From assembly GCA_023443725.1 (NCBI GenBank), contig JAEZTF010000010.1, positions 29,948 through 93,947 on the forward strand: a stretch of DNA of 64,000 nucleotides. Reading direction: 5' to 3'. Positions 4,192 through 43,908 of the stretch are shown here, piece after piece (position 1 is the first letter of the stretch; each line of letters opens with the position of its first letter). This DNA comes from Candidatus Parcubacteria bacterium (lineage in GTDB: Bacteria; Patescibacteriota; Microgenomatia; UBA12405). The notes under the pieces were generated by a model. The model was not told the origin of the DNA. It was given only the letters and a program-made list of their open reading frames with translations, and made no database searches. Made by a program: the position numbers and the translations under genes.

Positions 4192-4503
4192 ATGGATAAA
4201 ATATTTAAAGCCTTAGCAGATATAAATAGGAGAAAGATAATTACTTTGTTGAATAATAATCAAGAATTGTCTGTTAATCAGTTATTAAAATATTTTGACA
4301 ATATTGGACAATCAACATTGTCAAATCATTTATCAATTTTAAGAAAAGCGAAATTAGTGGAGTTTAAAATATTGGGGAAACAAAGAATATATAGGTTAAA
4401 CAAAGATTTATTAATGGCGTTTGCGGAAAATATGCGTAAATTCGTTGGAAAAACAGATGAATTTGTAGTAGATAATATTGAAATTAGAGGAATAAAGGTG
4501 TAA
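4192..4503 (+). CDS. ArsR/SmtB-family HTH transcriptional regulator
   Basis: FKALADINRRKIITLL...LSVNQLLKYF...STLSNHLSILRKAKLV winged-helix pattern. The ATG at 4192 is preferred over the track's TTG at 4156. Confidence 0.75.
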   Translation: MDKIFKALADINRRKIITLLNNNQELSVNQLLKYFDNIGQSTLSNHLSILRKAKLVEFKILGKQRIYRLNKDLLMAFAENMRKFVGKTDEFVVDNIEIRGIKV

Positions 4504-4504
4504 A

Positions 4505-15051: not shown

Positions 15052-16050
15052 TCAGGATGAATAGATAATTCCAATTGAAAATAATAAAGTCATTATTGAT
15101 GATCCACCAACAGAAATAAATGGTAAAGGAATACCAGTTACAGGAAGGATACCAATGTTCATACCTATATTAATAAACATTTGTATCCAAATTTGAAAAG
15201 CAATTCCTAAAATAAATAAAAATAACGGTTTATTGTTGGTAGTATTAAAAGCTTTTTTAAATAAATTTGTTAACAACAAGAAATAACCGGTAAAAATAAT
15301 TAGAATACCAACAAGGCCTAACTCTTCAGCCGTGGCGGCAAACATAAAATCTGTGTGTTTTTCTGGTAAAAATAATAATTGTCCTTGAGTTCCTTTTCTG
15401 TAGCCTTTACCAAAAATTCCTCCAGAACCAACAGCTATTTTGGATTGAATAACATTGTACCCTTTACCTAATGGATCAGACAATGGATTTATAAAATTAA
15501 TTATCCTATCTTTTTGGTAACCATGAAGAATATATTTGTAAACAAAAGGTGAAAGAGCGATGAAACATATACCTAAAATAAGTGATAATTTAAGTATTTT
15601 TTTATCATAAAAAATCACCGGAATAATTAAACAAAGAACCGATATAGCACTGCCTAAGTCTGGTTGAAGCATGATTATGCCCACTGGAATTAAATGAAGC
15701 AAAGGTAAGTTTGAATTGGCTAAAACTAACATAAGCCATGGCTTAGTTACTTCAGATGGTTGGATGGTAGTGCCAGCTATATTAATCCATCGTCTAGAAC
15801 CACGAGTTATATTGTTTAATAAAATGGGTAATATTAAAAAAACACAACAAACTATAAATATAAGCCACTTTGAAGAATTAATTTGTTTAACGTTTATTTG
15901 TTTTCCTAAAAAAAATAAACCAACCCCAATCCCCCAAGCAATTAATTGTTTTGCAACTAATGATGGGGCAATCGAGCTGATCATTAGAATATTGATACAA
16001 AAAAGAATACCAAAACTAATCAAAAGCGAAAGTTTGCCTTCTTTAAACAT
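15052..16050 (-). CDS. rodA: SEDS-family peptidoglycan glycosyltransferase (RodA-like)
   Basis: Polytopic. IQPSEVTKP, LQPDLGSA, FLPEKHTDFMFA and GIPLPFISVGGSS are SEDS hallmarks. It lies outside the dcw cluster, hence RodA rather than FtsW. Confidence 0.75.
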   Translation of the reverse strand: MFKEGKLSLLISFGILFCINILMISSIAPSLVAKQLIAWGIGVGLFFLGKQINVKQINSSKWLIFIVCCVFLILPILLNNITRGSRRWINIAGTTIQPSEVTKPWLMLVLANSNLPLLHLIPVGIIMLQPDLGSAISVLCLIIPVIFYDKKILKLSLILGICFIALSPFVYKYILHGYQKDRIINFINPLSDPLGKGYNVIQSKIAVGSGGIFGKGYRKGTQGQLLFLPEKHTDFMFAATAEELGLVGILIIFTGYFLLLTNLFKKAFNTTNNKPLFLFILGIAFQIWIQMFINIGMNIGILPVTGIPLPFISVGGSSIMTLLFSIGIIYSS

Positions 16051-22198: not shown

Positions 22199-23276
22199 AA
22201 ATTAACTTTAATAGTTTCAGATTAATTTGATTTTTTATATTTTTATTCTGAAACTTTATTAGTTTTAGTGAATTGATGGATGATAAAAGATTCTTACTGT
22301 TTAATTGGGATTGATCAATAATAATAGTTTGTTGTGGTAATTGTTGTTTAACCCAATTAGCATTTATTAACTGTTCATTTTGTTGACTTTTGGGCAAAGG
22401 AATCAGAATGGATCTTTGATTAAAAGCAACAATTTCTTGGCTAGTATTAGCACCACTTCGACTAATAATTATTGAGGCTTTTTTGAAAATCCACCCCATA
22501 TATTCTGTTTTTATATAATCAAAAGGATAATAATTTTTATATTTTGAAGACAATTTTTTAAATTTCTCGAAGTCTAATGGTCCAGTTTGATGAATAATTA
22601 AAAAATCTTTTAAGTTTGGTAAGATTTTTTTAATAGTTAAGTTAATAACATGCGATCCTTGATTACCAGCGGTAATATAAATAATTGGTTTTTGGTTAGA
22701 TTTAATTGAAGGAATTTTAATTTCTTGAGTAAATAATTCATAGCGGAGTAAATTTCCAGTAACAGCGGTTTTTGTTTTAGGTAAACTTTTTAATTGTTTT
22801 TGATTGTCGAAAGACAAGGCAATTTTAGTTACAAACAAACTGTTTATTTTTGTGGTTAAGCTATTAGTAGCGGTTTGTTCATGAGTAATAGTAGGAATGT
22901 GTTTTAAACAACCATTAATGATTACAGGAACAGAAACATAACCACCAAAAGAAACAATTACATCAGGTTTAATTTTGACTATAATTCTTTTTGATTCAAA
23001 AAAACCAATTATAGTTTTTTTTATACCTCTAAGAGTATTGGGAAAGTACTTACGATCAAATTTACCACATTCAATACCAAAATAACTTATCCCCAATTCA
23101 GGAATAATCTTTGATTCAATTGACTTTTCTTGGCCTTCCGAAGAATTTAATTTACGGCCAATATAATAAATGGTCCAATTAAATTTGGAGTCATTTTTAA
23201 GTTGACGAATCAGTTCTAGAGCTGGTGTGAGATGAGTGCCGGTGATGATGATTATCTTTGTTATCTTTTGACTCAT
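22185..23276 (-). CDS. murG: MurG-like GT28 glycosyltransferase (lipid I to lipid II)
   Basis: N-terminal IIITGTHLTPAL (a degenerate G-loop), C-terminal SRSGANTSQEIVAF...ILIPLP, and dcw position. Confidence 0.75.
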   Translation of the reverse strand: MSQKITKIIIITGTHLTPALELIRQLKNDSKFNWTIYYIGRKLNSSEGQEKSIESKIIPELGISYFGIECGKFDRKYFPNTLRGIKKTIIGFFESKRIIVKIKPDVIVSFGGYVSVPVIINGCLKHIPTITHEQTATNSLTTKINSLFVTKIALSFDNQKQLKSLPKTKTAVTGNLLRYELFTQEIKIPSIKSNQKPIIYITAGNQGSHVINLTIKKILPNLKDFLIIHQTGPLDFEKFKKLSSKYKNYYPFDYIKTEYMGWIFKKASIIISRSGANTSQEIVAFNQRSILIPLPKSQQNEQLINANWVKQQLPQQTIIIDQSQLNSKNLLSSINSLKLIKFQNKNIKNQINLKLLKLIYEII

Positions 23277-24366
23277 GATTTGAGTATAGCAGGGTTGTGT
23301 TATTTTTTTCGATATTATGAACCAACCCGATGGCGGCGGCTAAAGTAGTTAAAGATGATCCACCATAAGAAATAAATGGTAAAGGAACTCCGGTTAAAGG
23401 GATAATACCAGCAATTGCTGAAACATTAATTAATGTTTGATAAGTAATCCATAAAGCAGTGCCTGAAACTATAAGAGATTGAAAATTGTCAGGAATAATA
23501 TTGGCTAATTTAAACAAATAAGAAATTAAAGAAATATAAACAATTATTATAGAAAATAATCCGATGAATCCGGTTTCTTCACCAATAACCGCCAGAATGG
23601 AATCAGTAGATATTTTTGGAAGAAAACTATATTTTTGATCTGAATTAGCAAAACCTTTACCAAAAAAACCACCAGAAGCTAGAGTTAAAGTAATTTGATT
23701 ACTATGATATGAAGCCGTGTTTTGATTTTGTTCAGGATTTAGCATAGTTTTTAATCTAGCAGACCTATAAGGAGAAGTTAAAACCAATATCAAACTAATC
23801 GAAACTAAAAAAACACAAAATGTAAGAAGTGAGCTAATTTTGCCACCCCCAAGGTAATAAAGTGAAATAGAAATAGCCGATATTAAAATAGCTGTACTTA
23901 AATTTGGTTCTATAATTATTAGTACAAAAGGAATACCTAAATAAACAACCAAGTTTTTTAATTGACAATTTTCACTTTTTGAAAAAAATTTTGAAAGAAA
24001 TAACACTAAACTCAGTTTTAAAATTTCTGATGGTTGAAATTTAACGATGCCCAAATTCAACCAACGATGAGCTCCAAGAGTTTCATCACTAAATCCTGGA
24101 ATAATAACTAATATCAAAGCAATAATTGAAAAAATAAAAAATAAAGGAATATATTTTTGAATAGTTTTAAGTTTTATCTTAGAAAAAATAAAATAAACTA
24201 CAAAACTAATTATTAACCAAAGACTTTGTTTTCTAAGAAAGAAAAACTTATCTCCAATACTAGTAGTAGCTTCACTAAGTGAAGCAATGGAAATAAAAAT
24301 AATTCCAATAGCAATTAGAATAGAAATTAGGGAAATTAAAGGTGATTTAAATGCTGACGGTTTCAT
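23197..24366 (-). CDS. ftsW: SEDS-family protein FtsW
   Basis: FQPSEILKL, FLPKISTDSILA and GVPLPFISYGGSS. The ATG at 24366 (MKPSAFK...) is preferred over the track start at 24489. The 3' end overlaps murG by 80 nt. Confidence 0.8.
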   Translation of the reverse strand: MKPSAFKSPLISLISILIAIGIIFISIASLSEATTSIGDKFFFLRKQSLWLIISFVVYFIFSKIKLKTIQKYIPLFFIFSIIALILVIIPGFSDETLGAHRWLNLGIVKFQPSEILKLSLVLFLSKFFSKSENCQLKNLVVYLGIPFVLIIIEPNLSTAILISAISISLYYLGGGKISSLLTFCVFLVSISLILVLTSPYRSARLKTMLNPEQNQNTASYHSNQITLTLASGGFFGKGFANSDQKYSFLPKISTDSILAVIGEETGFIGLFSIIIVYISLISYLFKLANIIPDNFQSLIVSGTALWITYQTLINVSAIAGIIPLTGVPLPFISYGGSSLTTLAAAIGLVHNIEKNNTTLLYSNHESKDNKDNHHHRHSSHTSSRTDSST

Positions 24367-25480
24367 TGGCAGATTTGATAATTGAGGGTTTGATATTGAT
24401 AGGATTGTTTTGATTAGAAAATGGAATAAAATCTCGATAACGACTACAGGTATTATTTGATTTATCTTTTTTGGTAATTTCAGAACCAATGATTTTAGAA
24501 TTGTAAAATCTTTTATTTTCTTGAGGGATATCTATTTTTGTTTCTATTGGTAAGAATGATAAAAGATGAAAGAAAAAAAGTGAATTAATATTATTTCTAA
24601 TTTCGATTTGATGGTAAAGATCAAAAGAAGCTGTTAATCTTGGATTACATTCTAAAATGAAAACTTCTTCTTGATCAGTTACAAAAAAATCTAGACCAAA
24701 GAAACCATGATAATCAAAATTTGATAATACATCGGCAAGTTGTTCAGTTAAAATTTTAATTTTTTCAACAATTTTTGTTGGAGCAAACGATGGCCATTGT
24801 CGACCAACAGTAGTGAAAGGGTTTTGAGTAAATTGAGAAAGTCCAGTATATTGTAGTCCCGGTGGACTTTGAATTAGACCAGCGTTGGTAAGACAACAAT
24901 TATTAATTAATGAATAACCAGATAAAAATGGTGTAAATTTTACTGGAGTTTGAAGTGGAATTTTATCTTTTATATCTTCCCAATTTGATGAACTAAAGGT
25001 GCTTTTACCAGCCCAACCGAATCTGGTTTGAAGAACTAAATGTTTATTTAATACTTGTTGATATTTTTCAAAGTTTTCTTGATTGAATTTATCAATAATT
25101 GATGGAATTGTAGGTAAATAATGTTTTTTACAAAGTTTAGAAAAATTTATTTTATCTTCTAAAAAGCGATTTATTTTGGCTGGATTAGCGGCGTAAATCC
25201 AATTTTTTTGATGACAGATATGTTCTATCTTTCCCGAAGGTTTGAATGGAATTATAACTGCTTGGTGGCCAGTTTGTTTAATTTTGTTTTTAATAAAATT
25301 AATAGTTATGACTTCTGATAATAATTTCCCCGAATTTTTAATTTTATTGTTTAAATTCAAAATATCTGAATTTAATAAATAAAAATTACTTATTTCTTTA
25401 ATATTGATAGTTAAAAACTTATCAACACTAATAAAGAAAAAATCAAAATTACTATTTTGAAGTGTGTTAATTAGATTCAT
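24347..25480 (-). CDS. ATP-grasp superfamily ligase, not Ddl-like in sequence
   Basis: FGWAGKSTF (P-loop-like lysine region) and the C-terminal HGFFGLDFFVTDQEEVFILECNPRLTAS (ATP-grasp Mg/ATP-binding E-x-N motif). Confidence 0.65.
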   Translation of the reverse strand: MNLINTLQNSNFDFFFISVDKFLTINIKEISNFYLLNSDILNLNNKIKNSGKLLSEVITINFIKNKIKQTGHQAVIIPFKPSGKIEHICHQKNWIYAANPAKINRFLEDKINFSKLCKKHYLPTIPSIIDKFNQENFEKYQQVLNKHLVLQTRFGWAGKSTFSSSNWEDIKDKIPLQTPVKFTPFLSGYSLINNCCLTNAGLIQSPPGLQYTGLSQFTQNPFTTVGRQWPSFAPTKIVEKIKILTEQLADVLSNFDYHGFFGLDFFVTDQEEVFILECNPRLTASFDLYHQIEIRNNINSLFFFHLLSFLPIETKIDIPQENKRFYNSKIIGSEITKKDKSNNTCSRYRDFIPFSNQNNPINIKPSIIKSANETVSI

Positions 25481-26298
25481 CTTTTGGCACCGGTTAAAAG
25501 AATAACTGGAAAGTTTCCAACATCGATTCCATTTTTAATCGCTTTTTGATAACCGGCTAAAGCTAATGATCCTTCTAAAGAAGTAAAAATATTTTTAGAT
25601 TCGAGTAGTTGATTGGCTAATAAAATAGCTTCATTTTGAACAGTAAAAGCCGAACCATTACAATTCTTAATATTTGAAATAATTTTGTCTTTTAGGGGTA
25701 TAAATTTTACAGATAAAGCATCAGTAATTAGTCTGTTTTCAGGTATAAAGTTGTTATCAAAGCGTTTGGAAATAGGACAGTTACTGGCCGATTGAACAGC
25801 AAAAATCTTAGTTGAAGGTGGAAGTTTTTGGGCAATTCCGAGAAGGGTAGTACCACTACCAACAGGAATAAAAATACTGCTAATTTGTGGTAAATCTTGA
25901 ATAACTTCTAAGGCAATTTGTTGATATCCGATTAAAGCTGAAGGATCGGTTGATTGACGAAGTAGATAAACTTGTTTACTTTTTGCATATTTAATAGCAT
26001 CGCTAATAGGTTGGTCACTTAAAATAATTTCAGCAGAGTATTGCTTTAAAAGATCTAATTTCTTTTGATTTACTTTTGAAGATAAAAATATAGTTAATTC
26101 AATCTGATTGATTTGGCAAAAATGAGCCGCTGAAATTGCTGCATTACCAGTACTAGAGATAACAGCTTTAGTGAAACCAAGATGTTTTAAGTTTTCTATT
26201 TGAAACGGTATGGCTCTATCTTTAGCTGAACCGGTTGGGTTTTGGTCTTCCCTTTTTAAATAAAAATTGTCTATTTTAACTAAAGGAGTATTTGTCAT
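25477..26298 (-). CDS. Fold-type II PLP-dependent enzyme (threonine synthase / cysteine synthase / serine racemase superfamily), short form
   Basis: LKREDQNPTGSAKDRA (PLP-lysine motif), SSTGNAA, PVGSGTT. Confidence 0.75.
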   Translation of the reverse strand: MTNTPLVKIDNFYLKREDQNPTGSAKDRAIPFQIENLKHLGFTKAVISSTGNAAISAAHFCQINQIELTIFLSSKVNQKKLDLLKQYSAEIILSDQPISDAIKYAKSKQVYLLRQSTDPSALIGYQQIALEVIQDLPQISSIFIPVGSGTTLLGIAQKLPPSTKIFAVQSASNCPISKRFDNNFIPENRLITDALSVKFIPLKDKIISNIKNCNGSAFTVQNEAILLANQLLESKNIFTSLEGSLALAGYQKAIKNGIDVGNFPVILLTGAKR

Positions 26299-26341
26299 AT
26301 AATTGGCTAATTATACTAATTATATATTTTTTATCTTTAAT

Positions 26342-26506
26342 ATGACAGAAACAAAGAAAGTTAAATGTCCTGATTGTGGAGCTGAAATTTTATTATCTGG
26401 AACTGAAGAAGTCGGTGATATTTTGGAATGTGGCGAGTGTGGTACTGAAGTAGAAATTACTTCTATTGATCCTCTTTCTTTTAGAGAATTAGTCGAAGAG
26501 AAATAA
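26342..26506 (+). CDS. LysW-like zinc-ribbon small protein (54 aa) with an acidic tail
   Basis: MTETKKVKCPDCGAEILLSGTEEVGDILECGECGTEVEITSIDPLSFRELVEEK. The CPxCGAEI...GE/DIxxCxxCGxExE pattern and length match my recollection of Thermus LysW, but the C-terminus is VEEK, not EDWGE. It is the only plus-strand gene inside the dcw block. Confidence 0.5.
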   Translation: MTETKKVKCPDCGAEILLSGTEEVGDILECGECGTEVEITSIDPLSFRELVEEK

Positions 26507-27061
26507 TCTGTAAATACCTTGATTCTCAAAATTCAGATCAGTTAAATCGGCTTGTCCATAATGAACTCCCCTATTATCTCTTGAACTATCGACATATAAA
26601 ATAATATTGTCTTTTTTCTCGATGATAAACAAAACATGATGACCATTCTTTTGACGAACTAGGTCGCCAGTTTGAATATCAGTAATATTTGTAATTTTTT
26701 TTGATAAAGGAGTGGAAGTTAACATGTCAGCAGAAGTTTTTCGAGGATTAAGATCTACTTTTTTATTGATCAAAGAACCATAGAATATTAGCAACTGACA
26801 AACTAATCCGGAGCAATCGATACCGATTTTATTTTTCTTTTGAAAATTGTAAATTTCTCTTTCTGAAAGATTTAATAATTTTAAATTTTCTTGGTTAGCC
26901 AATTCAACAGTTTTAAGAGCGATATCTTTAGCGTTTCCCTTACCTCCCATAAATCCCTCTTTGATTATTTTGCCGTCTTTTAAAGTATTCTTCCAATATG
27001 GAATACCGATGTATTTACTGATTTCTAATTTTAATTGATTGATTAATTCAGGCCCAACCAT
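26489..27061 (-). CDS. NlpC/P60 (C40) family cysteine peptidase, no obvious signal peptide
   Basis: GIDCSGLVCQLL (catalytic Cys) and GHHVLFII (His). The ATG at 27061 is preferred over the track start at 27097. Confidence 0.7.
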   Translation of the reverse strand: MVGPELINQLKLEISKYIGIPYWKNTLKDGKIIKEGFMGGKGNAKDIALKTVELANQENLKLLNLSEREIYNFQKKNKIGIDCSGLVCQLLIFYGSLINKKVDLNPRKTSADMLTSTPLSKKITNITDIQTGDLVRQKNGHHVLFIIEKKDNIILYVDSSRDNRGVHYGQADLTDLNFENQGIYRLFLFD

Positions 27062-28077
27062 AATCCAAAAATAGCTAAAATAATACCAGCTAACCAAGCA
27101 CGAGTAACAATTTTAGGTTCTTCCCAACCAATTTTTTGCAAAGTAAGATGAATAGGAGCAGCTGGAAAAACTTTTTTACCAAAATATTTTTTACTAAAAA
27201 TCTGAATAGCACTACTCATACCTTCAATGATGAATGGAGAACCAATAATTAATAATGGAACTATTTTTCCTAAAAGAATAGCAATTACGGCAAATGTAGC
27301 GCCAAATGATAAAGCTCCGACGTCACCCAACCAAATTCTGGCTGGATAAACATTAAAATATAAAAAGGCGATTAATGATCCTAACCATAGTGACAAAAAT
27401 AAAGAAGTTGGAGTATCTAATGAGGTATTTGATAAAAACCAAAAAGCAAACAAAGCTATCATTAATAAACCACAAGACAGACCATCTAAACCATCAGTAA
27501 TATTAAAAAAGTTGGTAAAAGCAGTGATGATGATGGTGGATATGGGGATAAAAAATAAACCTAAGTGAATTGGTCCAAAAAAAGGTATGTAGAAAAAATC
27601 TATTTTTAATTTTAGATAAATAAGAAAAGAAATAATAACTGATAAAAGTAATTGAAGAATAAGTTTATGAATTAATCTAAGTCCAAAAAAACCAGTTTTT
27701 TTGAAACCAAAAAACTTATAAATATCATCATAAAGTCCAAGAATACCAAAACTAATAAAAGTAAAAAAGATTATTTCTAACTCATAATTTATTTGAAAAT
27801 TAGAAGAAATAAATATTTTGGAAAATTTTAATATAGGAAATAGAATTAAAAACATAACACAAACAGCAATGATGATTAAGAGTCCTCCACCTACAGGTGT
27901 GCCACTTTTTGAGTTATGAAATTTATCAAAAATAGGTGTTTTGTTATTTTGAAAATCGGTTGTTTGTTGTTTTTGACGTTGAAATTTGAGTTTGTAAAGA
28001 AGATTGATAAATGGAACAACTAAAGTACTAGAAATAAAGAAGGAAAAAAGTAATAGACCTAAATAAAGATGAATCAT
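27043..28077 (-). CDS. mraY: Phospho-N-acetylmuramoyl-pentapeptide transferase
   Basis: LYDDIYKF, NITDGLDGLS and PAAPIHLTLQ motifs. 10-TM topology. Confidence 0.9.
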   Translation of the reverse strand: MIHLYLGLLLFSFFISSTLVVPFINLLYKLKFQRQKQQTTDFQNNKTPIFDKFHNSKSGTPVGGGLLIIIAVCVMFLILFPILKFSKIFISSNFQINYELEIIFFTFISFGILGLYDDIYKFFGFKKTGFFGLRLIHKLILQLLLSVIISFLIYLKLKIDFFYIPFFGPIHLGLFFIPISTIIITAFTNFFNITDGLDGLSCGLLMIALFAFWFLSNTSLDTPTSLFLSLWLGSLIAFLYFNVYPARIWLGDVGALSFGATFAVIAILLGKIVPLLIIGSPFIIEGMSSAIQIFSKKYFGKKVFPAAPIHLTLQKIGWEEPKIVTRAWLAGIILAIFGLWLGLN

Positions 28078-28079
28078 AA

Positions 28080-29408
28080 TTAAATTTTAATATATTCAAT
28101 ATTAGCACCTAAGGAAGAAAGTCGTTCAGCTAATTTTTCGTAGCCTCGTTCTATAAATTCGACACCATCTATAGTAGATATTCCATCAGCAACTAAAGCA
28201 GCTATAGTAGTTGAGGCTCCGGCTCGAAGATCATCAATAACAAAATTAGTTGGTTGTAATTTGGTTGGTCCATATATTTTTACTCCGTGAAAAAAGTTAG
28301 GGTTGTCATTTTCTGGATTAAATTGATAGTAAGTTTCTGGATTTTCAACTATAGGATTAAATAATTGGACTTTTGCTCCCATTTTTTGTAAGTTAGCAAT
28401 ATGTTGAAAACGACTTGGATAGACTTTTTCGATTACCGAACTACAACCTACTGATTGAGTCAAAAGAATTGAAAATAAAGCTTGCCAGTCAGTCATAAAA
28501 GCTGGTTCTGGTCCAGTTTCGATATTGATAGCTTTTAATGGTTTTTCCCAAGAAATATATATTTCTTCCTCCCCTGTTTGGACTTTAGCTCCCATATTTT
28601 CGATGGTATCTAAAAATGTTTTAACCGTTTTTGGATCAGCCCTAAGAATATTGACACTACCTTTGGTGGCTAGAGCAGCGCAAGCAAAAGTAACAATTTC
28701 ATTTCGATCACAAATTACTTGATGTTGAGTACCGGTTAGAGATGAAACTCCTTGGATAACAATTTTTCCAGGGTCAGATGGTTCTCTTTGAATTTTTCCA
28801 CCCATTTTATTTAAAAGAATTATTAGATCGTCTATTTCTGGTTCTTGGCCACAATTTTCTAAAATAGTTTCTCCTGGAACTAATACAGCTGTCATAATTA
28901 AAGTTTCAGTGACGGTATGAGAAGGTTTATTAAAAACATAATGAACTGGTTTAATTTTTTCAGTAGTAAAAACTAAGTTAGTTTCTGTTTCCTTGGTTTG
29001 AATATTCATTTTTGAAAAACAGTCAATTAGACGATCTAGAGGCCTATTGCCAAGACGATCTCCTCCTGGAGTAGGAACTACAGCTTGCCCAGTTCTGGCT
29101 AATAGTGGAGCAGAAAACATAAATGAACTACGAGATTTAATTCCAGTTCCTTGTGGGACAGTAAAATTTTTTATTTTTGAGGTAGTTACTTTGATGCAAT
29201 GTTCACCACAAGAACTTATTTCTGATCCTAAAGATTTTGCAATGCTTTCGGTTATTTTTATATCAGAAATATTGGGAATATTGGTTAATTGGGTAGTTTG
29301 ATCAGAAAGCATAGAAGCAATAATTTGTTTATAGCTAGCATTCTTTGCTCCTCTAATAGAAACTTCACCTTGAAGTTTTTTCCCGCCAGAGATGATATAT
29401 CGTGACAT
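28080..29408 (-). CDS. murA: UDP-N-acetylglucosamine 1-carboxyvinyltransferase, Asp at the Cys115-equivalent position
   Basis: ISGGKKLQGEVSIRGAKNA... and PGGDRLGNRPLDRLI (E. coli PGGCTIGARPVDLHI). Confidence 0.9.
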   Translation of the reverse strand: MSRYIISGGKKLQGEVSIRGAKNASYKQIIASMLSDQTTQLTNIPNISDIKITESIAKSLGSEISSCGEHCIKVTTSKIKNFTVPQGTGIKSRSSFMFSAPLLARTGQAVVPTPGGDRLGNRPLDRLIDCFSKMNIQTKETETNLVFTTEKIKPVHYVFNKPSHTVTETLIMTAVLVPGETILENCGQEPEIDDLIILLNKMGGKIQREPSDPGKIVIQGVSSLTGTQHQVICDRNEIVTFACAALATKGSVNILRADPKTVKTFLDTIENMGAKVQTGEEEIYISWEKPLKAINIETGPEPAFMTDWQALFSILLTQSVGCSSVIEKVYPSRFQHIANLQKMGAKVQLFNPIVENPETYYQFNPENDNPNFFHGVKIYGPTKLQPTNFVIDDLRAGASTTIAALVADGISTIDGVEFIERGYEKLAERLSSLGANIEYIKI

Positions 29409-29413: not shown

Positions 29414-30787
29414 TTAGTGAATATTTTTAATAATTGATTTAATAATTTTATTACCAGACAAACCACCAGAACTCATATATATAAGGATATCATTTGATGA
29501 TAAATGATGTATATAGTAGGCTTTTATTTCTTTTTCGATAGGAATATAAATCAACTTTGATCCAATTTCTTGTTTAAAGTCTTTAGCAGTAGCACGAGAT
29601 TTTTTGTCTACATTAGGGTTAAATCTAATTGGTCCTAAAACTATTTCATTAGCTTTTGTAAAAGCTTTTTTTAAGCCAATTAAATTACTTTTATATTGGG
29701 TAAATGAGGCATGAGGTTGAAAGAATACTTTTATTAATTTATCTGGAAAATGAGTTGTTAAAGCTTCAATGGTTGATTTAATACGATTTGGTGATTGAGC
29801 GAAATCTTCAAAAAACAAAATATTTTTTTGTTTATCAATTAATTCTAATCGCCTTTTAACTCCTCTATAAGAAAAAACAGCTTTTTGAATAAAACGAAAA
29901 CTAATACCTAATTGATCAGACATACTAACTGCAGCCAGAATATTCTCAAAGTTAAATTGACCGATAAGAGTAGTTTGAATAGATAACGGACCTTTGGGGG
30001 TATGGATTAATAAGTTGGTTATATCAGATTTAATATTTATTTTTTCTATAAAATAATCAGATTCTGGAGAATTATAGGAAACAATTTTAGCTTTTGAATA
30101 AAGACTAAGTTTTTTGGTTTGACAGCCAAGAGAATTGATTAAAAGGGTGCCATTTTCTGGTAGTCGATTAATTAATTTCTTAAAAGCTTGAAAATTTTTT
30201 ATTTTACTAGAATAAGAATCTTTATGTTCCCAATCGGCACTAGTTAAAATTAAATGTTTAATTGGATAATATAAAAACTTAGCTTTTCGATCTAATCCAT
30301 TAATTGATTCATCGGCTTCAACGATAGACCAATTAGATGGAGAGAAGTTAATAGAGTTCATCTTATTTTTGGCGTATCCACCAAACATGTAATTTGGATC
30401 TTTTTTAGCTTGAATGAAAATCCAAGACAATAGACTAGTGATAGTAGTTTTTCCAAAACTACCAGCAATTAAGACAGACTCATCTTTAATTAAGTTTTGA
30501 GCTAAATAATTAGTAGCAGAAATATAGGGAATTTTTAGTTTTTTTATTTGATTAAATTCTTTTTTGGTTTTTTCAAAAGAAAGATATGATGATCCAATAA
30601 TAGCCAAATCAATATTAGTATTGATTTCTATCGAATTGATCGATATATCCGCTTTTTTTAACATAGTACTAATTGGGGGATAAATTTTTTCTTGATCTGA
30701 TCCGGTTATATAAACTCCTCTTTTTTTGAGATTAACTGCCAGAGGAGCAGTCATGGTTCCAGCTATTCCGACTATGTGAATATGCAT
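29414..30787 (-). CDS. Mur ligase of the Mpl/MurC family, closer to Mpl (UDP-MurNAc:tripeptide ligase) by motif
   Basis: MHIHIVGIAGTMTAPLA...ITGSDQEKIYPPISTML (Mpl-type YPPMST motif), AGSFGKTT, EADES, RRLEL, EDFAQSP. Confidence 0.75.
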   Translation of the reverse strand: MHIHIVGIAGTMTAPLAVNLKKRGVYITGSDQEKIYPPISTMLKKADISINSIEINTNIDLAIIGSSYLSFEKTKKEFNQIKKLKIPYISATNYLAQNLIKDESVLIAGSFGKTTITSLLSWIFIQAKKDPNYMFGGYAKNKMNSINFSPSNWSIVEADESINGLDRKAKFLYYPIKHLILTSADWEHKDSYSSKIKNFQAFKKLINRLPENGTLLINSLGCQTKKLSLYSKAKIVSYNSPESDYFIEKINIKSDITNLLIHTPKGPLSIQTTLIGQFNFENILAAVSMSDQLGISFRFIQKAVFSYRGVKRRLELIDKQKNILFFEDFAQSPNRIKSTIEALTTHFPDKLIKVFFQPHASFTQYKSNLIGLKKAFTKANEIVLGPIRFNPNVDKKSRATAKDFKQEIGSKLIYIPIEKEIKAYYIHHLSSNDILIYMSSGGLSGNKIIKSIIKNIH

Positions 30788-30822: not shown

Positions 30823-31419
30823 TTATTTTTCATATGGAAGCCATTGATTGTCTTTAAAATATTCAAATCCAGGCATATTACGTTTATAGAATCCAGTTTC
30901 AATAGAAAAACGACCTAAATAACAAAATTGAAGATTTTGTTGTTGACTGTCAACAATGGTTTGTAACACCAATCTAATAGGTAAATTACTATGATTATAT
31001 TTAGGATTATAAAAAACATAAGCAATATGACTAATAGAGTTAGAAAAATAACATATTGAATAAGCAATTATCTGATGATTTTCATTATACCAACTATAAA
31101 TAGTATTAAAAATATGATTAGTAAATGTTTTTTTGACTGAACTTATGGGAAAATCCCAACCTAATTGTTTTATCCAAGAAAAAATTTCTTTTTGAATATT
31201 AAGATCAAATTTAAAATCGTTCAAATTAGTTTTAATAAAAGAAAAATTATCAGTTTTTCTTAAAATCCTTCTATTTTCTGAACTGAGATTAAACTTGGAT
31301 AAATTTGATCGACAACTACTATCCTGATACCAAAGATCTTTTTGGTTTCTTTGAGGAAGGAATCCTTGTTGATAATTTAATTCTATAGATTGATTGTTGG
31401 TTAAATTAAATTGGGTCAT
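30823..31419 (-). CDS. ATE/Bpt-like (arginyl/leucyl-tRNA-protein transferase family, ATE_C-type) protein
   Basis: FNLSSENRRILRK, IAYVFYNPKY...L and FCYLGRFSIETGFYKRNMPGFEYFKDNQW parallel the ATE_C pattern (SavYfFYdP...YLGYyi...M.YK..f.P.E.l....W) as I recall it. Confidence 0.55.
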   Translation of the reverse strand: MTQFNLTNNQSIELNYQQGFLPQRNQKDLWYQDSSCRSNLSKFNLSSENRRILRKTDNFSFIKTNLNDFKFDLNIQKEIFSWIKQLGWDFPISSVKKTFTNHIFNTIYSWYNENHQIIAYSICYFSNSISHIAYVFYNPKYNHSNLPIRLVLQTIVDSQQQNLQFCYLGRFSIETGFYKRNMPGFEYFKDNQWLPYEK

Positions 31420-32735
31420 ATTTTTTTTAATTTTAAAGCAGTTCTAAAAGCTTCTGTTTCTGACCAAGGATATTCAGTATTTCCATGAAGAATAGTATCT
31501 TCATGACCTTTACCACAAGCAATCACAACATCATCGGGTTGGGCTAACTTAATAGCTATATTGAAAGCGTCCTGTCGATTGGGAATATTAAAATAAGTAA
31601 ATTTTTGGTCAATCTTTTTTAGAATATCATTTATTTGTTTTTGATTTTCAATTTTTTGAATGTCAACAAAATTGGATTTATTAGGATCAATACCATTGAT
31701 TATTTGTTGATTAATTTGACTAATATCTTCGTTTCTAGTGTCGTCTGAAGTAATAATGGCAATATCAGCTAGACTAGAGACTACTTGACCCATTTGAGGT
31801 CGTTTTGTTTGATCTCGTCCGCCTGTGGCTCCAAAAATAATAATAATTTTACCTTTAGTAATTTTCTTTAATGAAGAAAGAGTTTTTTCTAAAGCGTTTG
31901 GAGTATGGGCAAAATCAACAATTGTTTTAAATTTAAAATTATTTTTAACTTCTTCTCGACGACCTTTGGTTTCGGGAAAATTTTTAACTGTTTCGAGTAA
32001 GAATTGTCGATTAATTTTTAAGTTATCAATAATTCCTAAGGCAACCAATATATTATTAATCTGATAAAAATAATTACTATCAGTGGTTATGGTTAGTTTA
32101 TTTACTTTAAAACTTAATTTTTTATTAGTTAATTTAATATCTTTAGCTTGATAATCTGACTTTTGGTCAACACTGTAAGTTGAGTAAGGAATTTGAATCA
32201 TAGGTTTAATTATTTGATATGACGAATCGTCTTTATTGATAATGCCATAATCTGATTGAGAGAAAATTTTTGCTTTAGACTGAATATACTCTTCCATGTT
32301 TGAATAATAATCTAAATGCTCATGTGAAGTGTTGGTAATAGCTGCAGTTATAAAGTGGCAACCTAAAAATCGATATTGATCAAGGCCATGAGCAGTAACT
32401 TCACAAACTACATGAGTAACTCCTGCAGCTAACATTTGACTAAGTATTTGCTGAAATAATTTTGGATCTGGACTAGTCATATGTAAACCAGTACTTATTT
32501 CTTGATTATTTCCAAACTTAGCGCCTATTGTAGTAATTACACCGGCATTAATACCAGCTTTTTTTAAAATTTCATAAACTAAAATACAACTAGTTGTTTT
32601 ACCATCGGTTCCAGTAATACCAATAAGTTTTAGTTTTTTTGCTGGAAAATTATGTTGAAGACTGACAAAAAAGTTTTTTGGGTAATGCCAGAAAAGATTT
32701 TTTATTTTTTGAAAATTGATCGATTTTAATGACAT
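31416..32735 (-). CDS. murE: UDP-N-acetylmuramoyl-L-alanyl-D-glutamate--diamino acid ligase
   Basis: GITGTDGKTT, EVTAHGLDQYR, TNTSHEHLDYY and ITSDDTRNED (a variant of the DNPR specificity motif). Confidence 0.85.
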   Translation of the reverse strand: MSLKSINFQKIKNLFWHYPKNFFVSLQHNFPAKKLKLIGITGTDGKTTSCILVYEILKKAGINAGVITTIGAKFGNNQEISTGLHMTSPDPKLFQQILSQMLAAGVTHVVCEVTAHGLDQYRFLGCHFITAAITNTSHEHLDYYSNMEEYIQSKAKIFSQSDYGIINKDDSSYQIIKPMIQIPYSTYSVDQKSDYQAKDIKLTNKKLSFKVNKLTITTDSNYFYQINNILVALGIIDNLKINRQFLLETVKNFPETKGRREEVKNNFKFKTIVDFAHTPNALEKTLSSLKKITKGKIIIIFGATGGRDQTKRPQMGQVVSSLADIAIITSDDTRNEDISQINQQIINGIDPNKSNFVDIQKIENQKQINDILKKIDQKFTYFNIPNRQDAFNIAIKLAQPDDVVIACGKGHEDTILHGNTEYPWSETEAFRTALKLKKI

Positions 32736-32749: not shown

Positions 32750-34369
32750 TTATAACAAATGGTTGATTTTAGAGGCTAATTCAAACCAAATTGGAGCAGC
32801 AGTACTAGAACCCCAAGGTGAACTTTTAGGATTATTAATAGTTACAATCATGGTAAATTTTGGATTATCACATGGAGAAAAACCAATATAGGAAGCAATG
32901 GTTGAAGAATCAGTATAACCACCTTTTACAGCAATTTGAGCGGTACCACTTTTAGCACAAACTTCAAGATTTTTTGGTTTCATAACAGAAACTACTCCAT
33001 TTTCGACAGAATATTTAAGGATTGATTTAATTTCTTCAATCGAATTTTGATTGAAAATTTGTTGTGGATTATTGTTTTTGTCTATTAAAATGTGAGGTTT
33101 AACTAATAACCCATTGTTAGCAATAGTATTAAATGCTTGCAACATACCTACTTGAGTAACGACTATTCCCTGTCCAAATGAAGCAGTAGCTAGATCTATA
33201 TCTGGCCAATTAGTTTTAGTACTAGGACGTGATTCTCCTTGCAAATCAATACCAGTTTTTTGGTTGAGACCAAGTTTTTGAAAATAATTTAAAAACTTTT
33301 CTAAACCAATTTTTGAGATAATATGGCTCATACCGATATTGTCGGAATTTTTTATGATCTCTTTAAGAGATGAGTCTGGATGGGTTTCGTTATCATGATT
33401 GGTTATAGTATATTCCCCTATTTTTAGAGGTTTATCGCATTCATGGCAAACATAATCAGGAGAAATTGATTTACTATCCAAACCAATAGTGACAACTAAT
33501 GGTTTAAATATTGATCCTGGTTCAAAAAGATCAGAAATTGAATTTATTTTTGTAGCACTGGGAGTGGCTGAAGTGGTGGCAGTAAAAGTGGTCATAGCTA
33601 AAATACCTCCGGTTTTACTATCCATAACTGTAATGGATCCAGAATCGGCATCATATTTTTCAACACCTTCTTTTAATTCTTTTTCTACTTCAAATTGAAC
33701 ACTGCGATTTAAAGTGGTGTGTAAATCTTGTCCGTCAATAGCAATAGAATTCCAAGACTTTTTAGTAAGAATAGCTTTTCCAGTAGCGTCTTGAGGAGAC
33801 CAAGTAAAACCCGTTTTACCTTTTAATTGTTTTTGGTAATAGCCTTCAAGCCCTCCGTAACCTATATCGTAGCCTTGATCGTTTTTTGCTACCAACCCTA
33901 AAATTGGTTGAGCCAATGATTGTTCTGGATAGTATCTTTTTTCATTTTTTTCAAAACTAAGACCGGGTATTTTAAGTTGGTTTTTTTCTTCTTCGTTAAA
34001 AAGACTAGTGAAAGTTAACCATTTTTGATTTTGATTACTTTTAAACAATTCAATTAACTTTATATTTTCTTGGTTGAATTGTGGATGAATTTGATTGATT
34101 TTTGTAAAAACTTCTTCAAGACTTTGATCTAAATTTGGTTTGTATATCGACAATTTATAATTAGTAACATTAAGAACCAAAGGAAAATCATCGGACGAAT
34201 ATATTTTTCCCCGACTGGGGATAGTTTTCTCAAGTTTGTACATTTGAATTAAAGCCTTTTCTCTTAATTCTGGTCCTTCTATCACTTGAATATAAAAAAA
34301 TCGACAGATTATAAAAATAAAACAGATTATTAAAGTTGTAGAAACAGTTTTAATTCTAGAGCTATTCAT
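32750..34369 (-). CDS. ftsI: Class B penicillin-binding protein (FtsI/PBP2 transpeptidase)
   Basis: N-terminal anchor, dimerisation domain, GSIFKP (SxxK), SDN (SxN), KSGTA (KTG). Confidence 0.9.
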   Translation of the reverse strand: MNSSRIKTVSTTLIICFIFIICRFFYIQVIEGPELREKALIQMYKLEKTIPSRGKIYSSDDFPLVLNVTNYKLSIYKPNLDQSLEEVFTKINQIHPQFNQENIKLIELFKSNQNQKWLTFTSLFNEEEKNQLKIPGLSFEKNEKRYYPEQSLAQPILGLVAKNDQGYDIGYGGLEGYYQKQLKGKTGFTWSPQDATGKAILTKKSWNSIAIDGQDLHTTLNRSVQFEVEKELKEGVEKYDADSGSITVMDSKTGGILAMTTFTATTSATPSATKINSISDLFEPGSIFKPLVVTIGLDSKSISPDYVCHECDKPLKIGEYTITNHDNETHPDSSLKEIIKNSDNIGMSHIISKIGLEKFLNYFQKLGLNQKTGIDLQGESRPSTKTNWPDIDLATASFGQGIVVTQVGMLQAFNTIANNGLLVKPHILIDKNNNPQQIFNQNSIEEIKSILKYSVENGVVSVMKPKNLEVCAKSGTAQIAVKGGYTDSSTIASYIGFSPCDNPKFTMIVTINNPKSSPWGSSTAAPIWFELASKINHLL

Positions 34370-34617
34370 TTTAGATTTACTTTTTGATCAATGTATATGA
34401 GAGGCTTTTTTTGTTGTTCTAGATAAAGATAATTAATAGAAGTCATATCGGTGAATTTTTTTTCTAGGCCTTGAGTTTCTATTTTAAGTTTTTGATGTTC
34501 AATTTGATTTTGATAAAGCTGACTGTTTTGGTTGATAATTTCACTTGAATAATAAAAAGAAAAAACGATTTGAATAGAAATAATTACAACTAAAATGTAA
34601 GTAAAATATTTTGGCAT
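34366..34617 (-). CDS. FtsL-like bitopic division protein
   Basis: 83 aa with a TM helix and a coiled-coil-like segment. Lies between rsmH and ftsI. Confidence 0.5.
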   Translation of the reverse strand: MPKYFTYILVVIISIQIVFSFYYSSEIINQNSQLYQNQIEHQKLKIETQGLEKKFTDMTSINYLYLEQQKKPLIYIDQKVNLK

Positions 34618-35501
34618 TAAACTATTTTATACGATCTAAGGATAGCTGAGCGAGATAGTGGATTTTTTTTGATTTCTTTAAATGAAGGGTGGACTGCTTT
34701 GCTGACTTGGAAAATTTTATTTTCAGACAAATTATTTTGAATAAATTGTTTAATAATTCTATCTTCGCCTGAATGAAAACTAATAAAACAAGCCGTTCCG
34801 TTTGGTTTTATAATGTTTAAACTTTGAGAAAGGATTTGTTTGAGATTGCTAAATTCTTGATTAACAGCAATTTTTAAAGCTAAAAATATTTTAGTACTAG
34901 GATCGGTTTTAGTTCTGATTTTCTTTTCTAAATAAAAATTTCTGATAATATCAGCCAATCTTTTGGCATTGGTAATAGGTTTTTTTTGACGTTCAGAAAT
35001 TATTTTTGATACTAAGTCATGACTATACAATTCTTGACTATTTTTGGAAAAAATTTCATACAACTCTTCGGCAGAACCGATGTTAATGATATCTTTAGCA
35101 GTAGGATCATTGGAATTTTGGTTAATTCGCATATCTAAAGATTCCTCATCGTTAAAAGAAAAACCTCTATTAGTAGAGATTTGTTGGTTTCTACTTAAAC
35201 CTAAATCAACTAAAAGGCCATCAACTTTTTGATTAATTTTTTCGTTAACAATTTTTTGTAGTTGATTAAAATTGGATAATACAGGGGTAAATTTTCCTGA
35301 TAAACCGGCATTTTTGATTCTTTCAGTAGATATTTCTAAATTAGTTTGATCTTGATCTATACCATAAACAATAGCATCTTGTTGAAGAAGGGCTAAAGTA
35401 TGTCCCCCATTTCCTAAAGTAGCATCAATAATAATAGAGTTTGGTTTAATGTTTAGGCTAGATATTACTTCTTCAAGAAGAACTGGTTGGTGATAATCCA
35501 T
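34617..35501 (-). CDS. rsmH: 16S rRNA (cytosine1402-N4)-methyltransferase RsmH/MraW
   Basis: HQPVLLEEV, DATLGNGGHT, SFHSGEDRIIK. Confidence 0.9.
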   Translation of the reverse strand: MDYHQPVLLEEVISSLNIKPNSIIIDATLGNGGHTLALLQQDAIVYGIDQDQTNLEISTERIKNAGLSGKFTPVLSNFNQLQKIVNEKINQKVDGLLVDLGLSRNQQISTNRGFSFNDEESLDMRINQNSNDPTAKDIINIGSAEELYEIFSKNSQELYSHDLVSKIISERQKKPITNAKRLADIIRNFYLEKKIRTKTDPSTKIFLALKIAVNQEFSNLKQILSQSLNIIKPNGTACFISFHSGEDRIIKQFIQNNLSENKIFQVSKAVHPSFKEIKKNPLSRSAILRSYKIV

Positions 35502-37715: not shown

Positions 37716-39136
37716 TTCAGTTTGTTTACCTTATAAACTACCCACTTAGAATTTTCGATCTGCCAATAATTGTCAGGAGAATCTTTTCTAAAATGACTCA
37801 TCTCGTAAGCTGGGTCTTCTCTTATTTTGTCCCATGAGTTGTAACTGATCACATATAATGTTTTTGGATTTTGATAATCGTCAGACGCTAAGGGATATAT
37901 GTTTTGAACTTTCAAAAGATCTCGAAATCGACTACCTTTGGTGTTGCCGTCTGGACTTTGTAAAACTACTAGATTAAAAGTATTACTATTTGATTGAGAC
38001 AAATCATTTTTAATAATATTAGTTATTTTATTTAGAGCCTCTATATTATTAGTTGAATCATTTTGAAAAAGTATTTTTGGTAAAGAAAGCAAACTACTAA
38101 TGATAAGACTGATAATAATTAATCTGGAAATGTTTGATTTTAAATTTTTTGCTAACCATAAAATAAAAAACAAAATAGCTGGAATTAAATAACGATTAGC
38201 AATAGGTGAAGAAATAAAAGACAAACCTAAAAATTGAAATAAAATAGGTATTAAAAATAAGTTTAAGGAGGTTTTTTTTAAACGTATATTTTTAACAAAA
38301 AGTATTGTTGATAGTAATAATATTATCCAGATAAATATTTTGTTTCCATAAGATATGTATTGAATAAATTGTAACGGAGTGTTGATAAATTTAATAAAGA
38401 AATTGATTATACTGAAATGGCTATTGGATGAGATAGGACTAAAATATAACATTCGACTTAAGAATAGTCCTGGTGGATGGGTAATATCGAAAATAATGAA
38501 AGGAACGATAGAAATAAATAATCCAATTAAATACAAAATAATATCTTTTATCTTTTTATTTTTTTTATAAACAAGAAAAACTAATCCTAAACAAAAAAAT
38601 ATTGAATACCAATGTTGGTGAACTGTTAAACCAAATATTATGCCACTAATTAATATATTTAGAGGAAAATTTGAATTGAGAATTAATATTCCTAGAATTT
38701 GCCAGAATGGAATAAAATGTGGATTCCATGCCCATCTAGAAGTTTCTACATAAGGAGAAAGTATAACTGGTAATAAAAAAATAGGTAACCATTTTATTTT
38801 TTCTTTTTTTAAAAATAACCAAATTAATAAAACAGTCAATGAACCGTAAAAAGCAGTAGCCAAAGCTGGTCCAAGAGGATTGTTTTTTGAAAAAAATACA
38901 AATGGTAGAGAAATATAATATGTTAACGAACTAAAAATACCAGTGTTGCCTTCAGCAATTGGCCCAATAAGGGTGATATCTTTTTGATCAATAATTCTTT
39001 TTATGCTTACTAAATCACTTGATTCATCACGAGTAAATCTGGCCGTGATTTTAAGATTATAAAATCGAACAAAAATAGTGAATATAAATATCAAAAATAA
39101 TAGAAGTATTTTTTTATTTAATTTTATTTTTTTCAT
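37712..39136 (-). CDS. GT-C fold glycosyltransferase (ArnT/PMT_2-like)
   Basis: Polytopic. The first loop, RFYNLKITARFTRDESSD, is an acidic DE-type motif. C-terminal soluble domain. Confidence 0.55.
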   Translation of the reverse strand: MKKIKLNKKILLLFLIFIFTIFVRFYNLKITARFTRDESSDLVSIKRIIDQKDITLIGPIAEGNTGIFSSLTYYISLPFVFFSKNNPLGPALATAFYGSLTVLLIWLFLKKEKIKWLPIFLLPVILSPYVETSRWAWNPHFIPFWQILGILILNSNFPLNILISGIIFGLTVHQHWYSIFFCLGLVFLVYKKNKKIKDIILYLIGLFISIVPFIIFDITHPPGLFLSRMLYFSPISSNSHFSIINFFIKFINTPLQFIQYISYGNKIFIWIILLLSTILFVKNIRLKKTSLNLFLIPILFQFLGLSFISSPIANRYLIPAILFFILWLAKNLKSNISRLIIISLIISSLLSLPKILFQNDSTNNIEALNKITNIIKNDLSQSNSNTFNLVVLQSPDGNTKGSRFRDLLKVQNIYPLASDDYQNPKTLYVISYNSWDKIREDPAYEMSHFRKDSPDNYWQIENSKWVVYKVNKLN

Positions 39137-43240: not shown

Positions 43241-43268
43241 AGATAAGTTTAAACAAAATTATTACAAA

Positions 43269-43907: not shown

Positions 43908-43908
43908 T

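Follow-up and report, generated by a model that had tools for sequence, protein, structure and literature searches.

A conserved four-gene module with a LysW-like protein at the murD position of CPR bacteria: a candidate carrier-protein cycle in peptidoglycan synthesis

The division and cell wall (dcw) gene cluster in a 64,000-nucleotide stretch of contig JAEZTF010000010.1 (positions 29,948 to 93,947; this whole stretch is called the window below) carries, between mraY and ftsW, four genes that encode an NlpC/P60-like protein, a LysW-like zinc ribbon, a fold-type II pyridoxal 5'-phosphate (PLP) enzyme and an ATP-grasp ligase. The genome is low in GC (~30%), and the nearest relatives of the region are metagenome-assembled genomes named Candidatus Shapirobacteria, which belong to the Microgenomates within the candidate phyla radiation (CPR); clade names here and throughout are those of the source annotations. 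The observations presented below support the notion that the four genes form one conserved functional unit, and this module sits either beside murD or where murD would be expected. Tentatively, and with a probability of about 0.4, we propose that it constitutes a carrier-protein cycle serving the position-2 (MurD/D-Glu) step of the peptidoglycan stem peptide, the chemistry of which we infer.

Conservation of the module and its link to MurD

An earlier note, made from the sequence of the window, had claimed that four other genes fill the murD slot between mraY and ftsW, and this interval indeed consists of four open reading frames (ORFs) at 24347-27061, all present at the coordinates given in that note and kept in the same order in about 70 species representatives, among which the identity of the ATP-grasp protein goes down to 44%. 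On the minus strand, in the direction of transcription, mraY (27043-28077; Pfam Glycos_transf_4, 100.9 bits) forms the upstream flank of the module and is followed by the gene for the NlpC/P60-like papain-like cysteine peptidase or amidase (26489-27061, 190 aa, the predicted unloader or transferase), the gene for the ThrC-like PLP enzyme (25477-26298, 273 aa) and that for the ATP-grasp ligase (24347-25480, 377 aa, the predicted loader of the carrier tail), the 3' end of which is overlapped by ftsW (23197-24366, minus strand; 389 aa with the ENA call and start; Pfam FTSW_RODA_SPOVE, 295.6 bits). The gene for the LysW-like zinc ribbon (26342-26506, 54 aa, the predicted carrier or acceptor) lies on the plus strand, its start separated from that of the divergent PLP enzyme gene by 43 nt (26299-26341) and its 3' end overlapping the P60 3' end by 18 nt (26489-26506). 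The end of the PLP enzyme gene overlaps the start of the ATP-grasp gene by 4 nt, which suggests that the two are translationally coupled.

Synteny was sampled by scanning one genome per GTDB species, which yielded 80 loci, and the counts that follow are restricted to loci with enough flanking DNA. The PLP enzyme gene (PALP, after its Pfam family) adjoins the ATP-grasp gene at 72 of 73 loci, the LysW-like gene is on the opposite strand at all 70, the P60-like gene is present at all 67 and mraY lies upstream at all 58, so that synteny of the quartet in related genomes is borne out. A scan of metagenomes with distant ATP-grasp members gave 80 further loci, and here the opposite-strand LysW-like gene, PALP and the ATP-grasp gene occur together at 58 of 61 loci and a P60 gene is found nearby at 49 of 54; these three genes thus make up an invariant core, with P60 as a very frequent fourth member. 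An arrangement of this kind is far beyond chance. Furthermore, the enzymes are fused to one another in several proteins, namely PALP to ATP-grasp in P0186 and P0272 from other CPR bacteria, the PALP half of which is orthologous to the PLP enzyme of the module (165 bits with a purpose-built PALP hidden Markov model, HMM), and ATP-grasp to NlpC/P60 in P0178 (Peregrinibacteria), P0196, P0238, P0260, P0395 and P0397. Together with the conserved gene order, these fusions indicate that the three enzymes work together.

The module occurs in four architectures. Architecture A, that of the window clade, reads ftsI-murE-ATE-murC-murA-mraY-[P60-LysW-PALP-GRASP]-ftsW-murG-ftsQ-ftsA-ftsZ, and architecture B, from a sister clade, reads murC-murB-murA-ddl-murF-mraY-[P60-LysW-PALP-GRASP]-ftsW-murG; in both of them the module occupies the exact canonical murD slot, and no murD-type ligase was found in the cluster across the 80 genome loci or anywhere in the 64-kb window. 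Architecture C, which includes a Gottesmanbacteria genome, lies outside the dcw cluster and has the order GT4-phosphatase-PAP2-P60-murD-like-LysW-PALP-GRASP (GT4 standing for a glycosyltransferase of family 4), while architecture D, close to a protein that NCBI assigns to Peregrinibacteria, has murD directly before LysW, PALP and an ATP-grasp gene fused to P60. The murD-like gene of architecture C scores 174-188 bits with TIGR01087 (cutoff 212), and the murD of architecture D reaches 224 bits, above that cutoff, at one locus (L166) and 208 bits at another (L167). In architecture B both ddl (344 bits, cutoff 262) and murB (311 bits) score above their cutoffs, and the MurF-type ligase has murF as its best match at 243 bits, below the subfamily cutoff of 288.6. 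Gene order in the four architectures hence links the module specifically to MurD, as an association and not as a mechanism.

The divergent, antisense placement of the lysW-like gene is likewise kept in all four architectures, a sign that the carrier may be expressed on its own, perhaps at a higher level, or that there may be transcriptional interference with transcripts running on from mraY. Promoter-like hexamers are present around the intergenic region on both strands (TTAACT-16-TATAAT at 26276-26303 on the plus strand and CTGTCA-18-TATAAT at 26348-26319 on the minus strand), but these are only suggestive, since consensus matches are common in such AT-rich DNA (27 found against 23 expected). 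The claim that the LysW-like gene is the only plus-strand gene in its block holds for convincing genes between ~13.5 and 57.7 kb, but not to the letter, as ENA lists one 40-aa plus-strand ORF between ftsZ and ileS, which looks spurious.

At some loci the module tolerates insertions: at L120 (1912-4937) two extra unannotated ORFs of 651 and 361 aa lie between PALP and the ATP-grasp gene, and at L105 a PaaX/Cas2-like ORF (5949-6773) separates P60 from LysW. At one architecture C locus (L124) genes for an MshA-like GT4, a histidine phosphatase and a PAP2/undecaprenyl-diphosphatase-like protein stand immediately upstream of the module (2380-4756), FtsE/FtsX and a peptidoglycan hydrolase-like gene are found downstream, and unannotated ORFs of similar size and order occupy the corresponding positions at L127, L130 and L136. 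These neighbours suggest an envelope context for architecture C.

The four proteins

Both sequence and fold identify the small protein as a genuine homologue of LysW. It matches the Pfam family Zn_ribbon_LysW (PF21344) at 48.6 bits, above the cutoff of 27, as well as LysW of Thermus and Thermococcus in the PDB (phmmer; 3wwl, E 3.5e-8, and 5k2m, E 6.9e-8), and its AlphaFold2 (AF2) model, with a mean predicted local distance difference test score (pLDDT) of 83, retrieves LysW chains as all of its six best matches in a Foldseek search of the PDB, at template modelling (TM) scores of 0.69-0.77 and followed by a sharp drop. It is furthermore strongly acidic like LysW (isoelectric point 4.1, net charge -9.5), the three enzymes of the module being basic. 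The proposal that the 54-aa ORF is LysW-like and ends in VEEK is therefore well founded at the level of the domain and the fold, but at the level of the LysW equivalog it is not, since the score with TIGR01206 (45.1 bits) stays below the cutoff of 53.2; that with NF041070 (31.3 bits) is likewise below its cutoff of 75.

It is the C-terminus that sets the protein apart. LysW ends in EDWGE and the protein of the window in VEEK, and the alignment between the two stops about 6 residues short of the LysW C-terminus. The 73 genome loci have the termini LIEEK (48), LVEEK (22), LTEEK (2) and LTEQK (1), distant loci have EEEK, IEEK or VEEK in 64 of 67 cases, and Peregrinibacteria-like loci have TEEK or EEEK. 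Since an EEK terminus is found in 117 of the 120 best of 895 family-search matches, where EDWGE would be expected of LysW, we regard the small protein as a distinct family. The tail columns are conserved at 100% (E52), 99% (E53) and 100% (K54), equal to the four zinc-binding cysteines, in a family with a mean column identity of ~45-53%, and such conservation would be expected of a carrier or an acceptor, whose tail has to reach into active sites or to take up a covalent modification. The possibility that the small ORF is spurious or an artefact of the minus strand was rejected on the grounds of its HMM matches, its fold and the conservation of its tail. A 103-aa metagenome protein from JGI (P0273) is a tandem of two LysW-like repeats, of which only the second carries an EEEK tail.

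The NlpC/P60-like protein is more divergent. Its score with Pfam NLPC_P60 (PF00877) is 18.3-18.5 bits, below the cutoff of 23, and this model is matched at E<=0.01 by 6 of 14 diverse orthologues (best E 1.5e-5); in the PDB, a profile search reached Spr/MepS at the Cys motif only, and a sequence search gave no specific relative. Invariant among the 14 orthologues are nevertheless G80-x-D82-C83-S84-G85, G140-x-H142, Y156 and G165-V166, and the C83 and H142 motifs are at least 95% conserved in 71 orthologues, while the third position of the triad (158) is His in most clades and Asp in the window clade. The start at 27061 is a conserved Met, and no signal peptide is apparent at the N-terminus, judged by eye only. 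The GxDCSG cysteine and the histidine agree with the assignment of an NlpC/P60 peptidase, whereas the Pfam score falls short of the cutoff. In Peregrinibacteria-like genomes the domain fused to ATP-grasp is a bona fide NlpC/P60 domain (62-70 bits; 55 bits with the MepS model).

The PLP enzyme belongs, as had been proposed, to the threonine synthase superfamily (Pfam PALP, PF00291, 154.8 bits, cutoff 35), and its sequence places it closest to archaeal-type ThrC paralogues yet far below every equivalog cutoff. The best NCBIfam matches are archaeal-type 'threonine synthase' models (PRK08329, 103.6 bits, cutoff 358), TIGR00260 thrC gives 44.5 bits (cutoff 167.1), and in the PDB B. subtilis ThrC comes first (6cgq, E 6e-16), followed by Fn1220, IlvA and serine racemase. 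Conservation across 75 orthologues is 95% or more for the PLP lysine K26 (S-x-K-D-R), the phosphate loop G147-S-G-x-T151 and S48-S49-x-G51-N52. An identity as plain threonine synthase was rejected, given that the scores with TIGR00260 and PRK08329 are below cutoff and that the protein has only 273 aa. The region that we take to correspond to the NS-N-P-x-R motif of ThrC reads, by eye, R-Q-S-T-D-P-S-A-L and lacks an Arg where the motif would have one.

The ATP-grasp ligase matches Pfam ATP-grasp_3 (PF02655) at 29.1 bits (cutoff 23.2), and its best NCBIfam match is the 'biotin carboxylase' model NF005096/PRK06524 at 98.5 bits, far below the cutoff of 684. No Ddl (TIGR01205/PRK01372), LysX, ArgX or RimK model of Pfam or NCBIfam matches it at E<=0.01, in agreement with the suggestion that the ligase is unlike Ddl, and neither do the Pfam models of TTL and RimK. 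Its AF2 model (pLDDT 79.6) finds generic folds only with Foldseek (PurK, Ddl and biotin carboxylase; TM ~0.5-0.57, E ~1e-12), for which reason no substrate can be deduced, and a PDB sequence search gave no specific relative (best E 0.003, PurK/CPSase). The family is sizeable, with 556 homologues in a word-indexed database and 1904 representatives at 50% clustering in a profile search of 1.84 billion representatives.

A possible carrier cycle and competing explanations

The earlier suggestion that a stem-peptide amino acid is made or attached by the module, with a carrier protein possibly involved, is the best reading of the present data, in view of the conservation of the unit, the LysW homology, the tail and the peptidoglycan context. 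In such a cycle the ATP-grasp ligase would use ATP, by way of an acyl-phosphate, to tether an amino acid, most plausibly glutamate, to the -Glu-Glu-Lys-COOH tail. The bond would most plausibly join the side-chain carboxylate of the substrate to the Lys54 epsilon-amine and leave the alpha-amine free for PLP chemistry; this mode is favoured because the PLP enzyme needs the free alpha-amine of its substrate, and also because known ATP-grasp enzymes, PylC and the D-Asp ligase Aslfm, acylate the epsilon-amine of Lys, the alternative being attachment to the tail carboxylate as in LysW or RimK. The fold-type II PLP enzyme would then racemise the tethered amino acid to the D-form or carry out a beta-substitution on it, and the NlpC/P60 cysteine amidase would release or transfer the product to MurD and the rest of the Mur pathway and thereby regenerate the carrier. 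Typical NlpC/P60 members cleave gamma-D-glutamyl-diamino-acid bonds, and in the glutamate case the intermediate would be N-epsilon-(gamma-glutamyl)-Lys, which after racemisation a D-specific gamma-glutamyl amidase could cleave to yield D-Glu for MurD. This version, with glutamate on the Lys54 epsilon-amine, racemisation and release of D-Glu, is speculative and taken by itself rather unlikely; it does cover all four parts as well as the link to murD. Precedents for the separate elements exist in LysW/LysX/LysK, in CysO/CysM/Mec, in tubulin tyrosine ligase (TTL) and vasohibin, which act on -EEY tails, and in the scaffold peptides of PEARL pathways.

Several points weigh against a carrier cycle at the MurD step. 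That the tail is covalently loaded and enters any active site is inferred, as are the amino acid that it would carry, the point of attachment and the sequence of steps, and the gene position is an association with MurD rather than evidence of mechanism. The ATP-grasp ligase is not a member of the LysX/RimK clade, the one with known activity on protein tails, P60 is absent beside the core triad at a few loci (L083 and L119), and the ThrC-like character of the PLP enzyme suggests beta/gamma chemistry rather than racemisation. Moreover, we know of no fold-type II PLP enzyme that acts as a glutamate racemase. Other CPR bacteria possess the glutamate racemase MurI (Penalver et al. 2024, as relayed in PMC11974145), and given its presence there a carrier seems a costly route to D-Glu. 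A stronger version, in which the module of the Shapirobacteria and the sister clade has replaced MurD and probably MurI altogether, position 2 being made in the D-form and installed via a protein-tethered intermediate, is doubtful.

Several other explanations can be weighed against the same data. The stem peptide could be tailored directly with no covalent carrier, the PLP enzyme serving as racemase or synthase of a non-standard (D-)amino acid that the ATP-grasp enzyme ligates onto UDP-MurNAc-peptide or lipid II, as a branch on the Lys epsilon-amine (like Aslfm) or on the D-Glu alpha-carboxylate, while the LysW-like protein acts as adaptor, activator or substrate mimic and P60 trims or proofreads. 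The dcw and MurD context would fit, as would a ligase that is not LysX/RimK-like and resembles Ddl and PurK about equally in fold, and a ligase paired with a racemase is a known layout for D-Asp branches; even the -E-K of the tail resembles the Glu-Lys part of the stem peptide. This explanation is nonetheless on the unlikely side, since it does not account for a constant, separately transcribed protein of the LysW fold in which the tail varies no more than the zinc ligands, and since no LysW-fold protein is known to act as an adaptor. Distinctly less probable is carrier-bound synthesis of a diamino or sulfur amino acid for position 3, following a logic like that of CysO/CysM/Mec or SbnA: the ATP-grasp enzyme would activate the tail, the PLP enzyme would make aminoacrylate from (phospho)serine, the Lys epsilon-amine of the tail or the activated C-terminus would attack it, and P60 would free the new residue, for instance of the lysinoalanine, lanthionine or Dap type. 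The four component types do map one-to-one onto CysO/MoeZ/CysM/Mec, LysW systems make Lys and Orn, and the PLP enzyme scores as ThrC/CysK/SbnA-like rather than racemase-like. CPR bacteria have furthermore been reported to lack amino-acid biosynthesis (PMC7143001). It is murD, however, and not murE that is linked to the module, murD adjoining it in architectures C and D and murE being kilobases off or absent from those loci, and the module contains no sulfur-transfer or kinase/reductase genes.

The tail might also be a reversible C-terminal switch, with terminal residue(s) of the LysW-like protein added by ATP-grasp and removed by P60 so as to regulate MurD, MraY, FtsW or division and with no metabolite carried. 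An acidic -EE-X tail, an ATP-grasp enzyme and a papain-like peptidase together are the parts list of the tubulin cycle, loader and remover are fused in architecture D, and the small gene has its own promoter orientation; but the notion is improbable in that it gives no role to the PLP enzyme, although this is always present, forms one polypeptide with the ligase in P0272 and belongs to a class acting on the free amino groups of small molecules. That the PLP enzyme and the ligase stand in for Alr and Ddl, as alanine (or other) racemase and D-Ala-D-X ligase in a replaced D-Ala branch, was the other suggestion of the earlier note. The window clade lacks ddl, murF and murB in the cluster, in the 64-kb window and in ~10 kb of high-end and ~6 kb of low-end flanks, and Ddl is among the top fold matches of the ATP-grasp model. 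In clade B, however, the same module has a canonical ddl (344 bits) and a gene for a MurF-type ligase (243 bits) as direct neighbours, which weakens this substitution considerably, and since no Ddl HMM matches the ligase and both carrier and P60 would be left unexplained, we consider it very improbable. A remnant of ordinary LysW-dependent lysine or arginine biosynthesis, finally, is effectively refuted. It has in its favour the Pfam LysW domain above cutoff and the NCBI and JGI pipelines, which name the small protein 'lysine biosynthesis protein LysW', but a canonical LysW system was rejected on account of the TIGR01206 and NF041070 scores below cutoff, the EEK tail in place of EDWGE and a ligase that is not of the LysX/ArgX or RimK type, and no lysZ/Y/J/K was found in the cluster or at any of ~165 loci. 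The wrong tail, the wrong ligase family, the missing lysZ/Y/J/K and the dcw/murD context also leave the pipeline name unsupported.

The surrounding gene cluster

Upstream of mraY the dcw cluster of the window continues on the minus strand with murA (28080-29408), a murC-like gene (29414-30787), a gene for a 198-aa ATE_C-like protein (30823-31419), murE (31416-32735), ftsI (32750-34369) and rsmH (34617-35501), and on the other side murG, ftsQ and ftsA lie between ftsW and ftsZ, all on the minus strand, ftsZ being the last gene and closing the cluster at 19415. No murB, murD, murF or ddl was found in the 64-kb window, in ~10 kb past its high-coordinate end (L163) or in ~6 kb past its low-coordinate end (L164, L165), a stretch in which murA, murC, murE, mraY and murG are all present; either murB, murD, murF and ddl are located elsewhere in this genome or the pathway is reduced.

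The ATE_C-like protein encoded between murE and murC (PF04377, 30.3 bits, cutoff 25) shares its fold with arginyl-tRNA-protein transferases and Fem-type enzymes and may transfer an amino acid from aminoacyl-tRNA to a peptidoglycan precursor. Its gene is kept at this site in all clade A dcw clusters (56 genome loci), and clade B lacks it and has murB, ddl and the MurF-type gene in the cluster instead. MurE of the window is short at the N-terminus, with the P-loop GITGTDGKTT at residues 38-47, and has no match to the N-domain of the Pfam Mur_ligase family, the model alignment beginning at about position 78-97; its sequence thus suggests that the UDP-binding domain is lacking or has diverged strongly. 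Two further ligases, the MurF-type one of clade B and the MurD-like one of clade C, likewise lack matches to the N-terminal regions of their models.

Near the dcw cluster, just downstream of ileS, there is a second FtsW/RodA-family paralogue of 332 aa (15052-16050, minus strand), which recurs at several related loci. A long single-strand run of surface-polysaccharide genes follows at ~39100-57750 (minus strand), comprising a sugar transferase, a nucleotidyl transferase, about ten glycosyltransferases of families GT1, GT2 and GT4, a Wzy-like gene, a hexapeptide acyltransferase, a DUF4012 gene and a PMT_2-like gene.

Implications and comparison with known systems

The cytoplasmic Mur pathway is usually seen as near-invariant across bacteria and is a major antibiotic target, and the module sits in or beside the murD position in at least three CPR groups, namely the Shapirobacteria and relatives, the Gottesmanbacteria and the Peregrinibacteria-like genomes. 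We found no paper in the searchable literature that describes a module of LysW-like protein, PLP enzyme, ATP-grasp ligase and P60. If the proposed cycle is real, it would take the amino-group-carrier principle beyond the biosynthesis of amino acids and natural products into the assembly of the cell wall, with a new -EEK tail, new and non-homologous partner enzymes and a new cell-wall context, it would reveal a route by which genome-reduced episymbionts obtain or install a D-amino acid, and it would correct a widespread mis-annotation affecting hundreds of CPR proteins named after lysine biosynthesis. Should the module even have replaced MurD and MurI, the peptidoglycan precursor pathway would run partly on a carrier protein and not on UDP-MurNAc alone.

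Among known systems, those built on LysW and other amino-group carrier proteins (AmCP), which serve lysine and arginine biosynthesis in Thermus, Sulfolobus and Thermococcus and natural products in Streptomyces, have most in common with the module: the zinc-ribbon fold and sequence homology, a small, strongly acidic protein whose C-terminal tail is strictly conserved, an ATP-grasp ligase and a releasing enzyme that cleaves an amide. They differ, however, in that their EDWGE tail ends in a Glu whose gamma-carboxylate carries the substrate, whereas the tail is -E-E-K-COOH and about 6 residues shorter here, and in that the ligase there is of the LysX/ArgX/RimK family and here another ATP-grasp enzyme. 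Tailoring is likewise performed by LysZ/LysY/LysJ in the one case and would fall to a fold-type II PLP enzyme in the other, the M20 metallopeptidase LysK has its counterpart in an NlpC/P60 cysteine peptidase, and amino-acid biosynthesis operons contrast with a CPR dcw cluster and murD.

The CysO-CysM-Mec-MoeZ system of cysteine biosynthesis in Mycobacterium tuberculosis shares the four-part logic of a carrier, an ATP-dependent activator, a fold-type II PLP enzyme and a releasing peptidase, but there the carrier has a ubiquitin-like beta-grasp fold and a Gly-Gly terminus, activation proceeds by adenylation and a thiocarboxylate, the peptidase is a JAMM metalloprotease and there is no peptidoglycan context. 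PylC and the Aslfm ligase of Enterococcus faecium resemble the proposed loading step in acylating a lysine epsilon-amine, and Aslfm furthermore acts on peptidoglycan precursors and has its gene paired with one for an enzyme, aspartate racemase, that supplies the (D-)amino acid; the acceptors are UDP-MurNAc-pentapeptide or free lysine, however, the racemase is PLP-independent, and neither a carrier nor a peptidase takes part. Acidic -E-E(-X) C-termini are modified by ATP-grasp enzymes in the case of TTL and of RimK with ribosomal protein S6, and papain-like vasohibin removes the terminal residue of tubulin, but these targets belong to the eukaryotic cytoskeleton or the ribosome, the enzymes are of other families and a PLP enzyme plays no part. 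In PEARL or 'pearlin' pathways, such as that to 3-thiaglutamate, an amino acid is added at the C-terminus of a small ribosomal scaffold, tailored there and set free by a peptidase, after which the scaffold serves again, although loading there is tRNA-dependent and LanB-like, the products are secondary metabolites and the scaffold does not have the LysW fold. MurD2/MurL of Xanthomonas, encoded beside or in place of murD, is likewise a non-canonical solution for the position-2 D-glutamate, but one in which MurL acts as an epimerase on UDP-MurNAc-L-Ala-L-Glu with no carrier, ATP-grasp ligase, PLP enzyme or peptidase.

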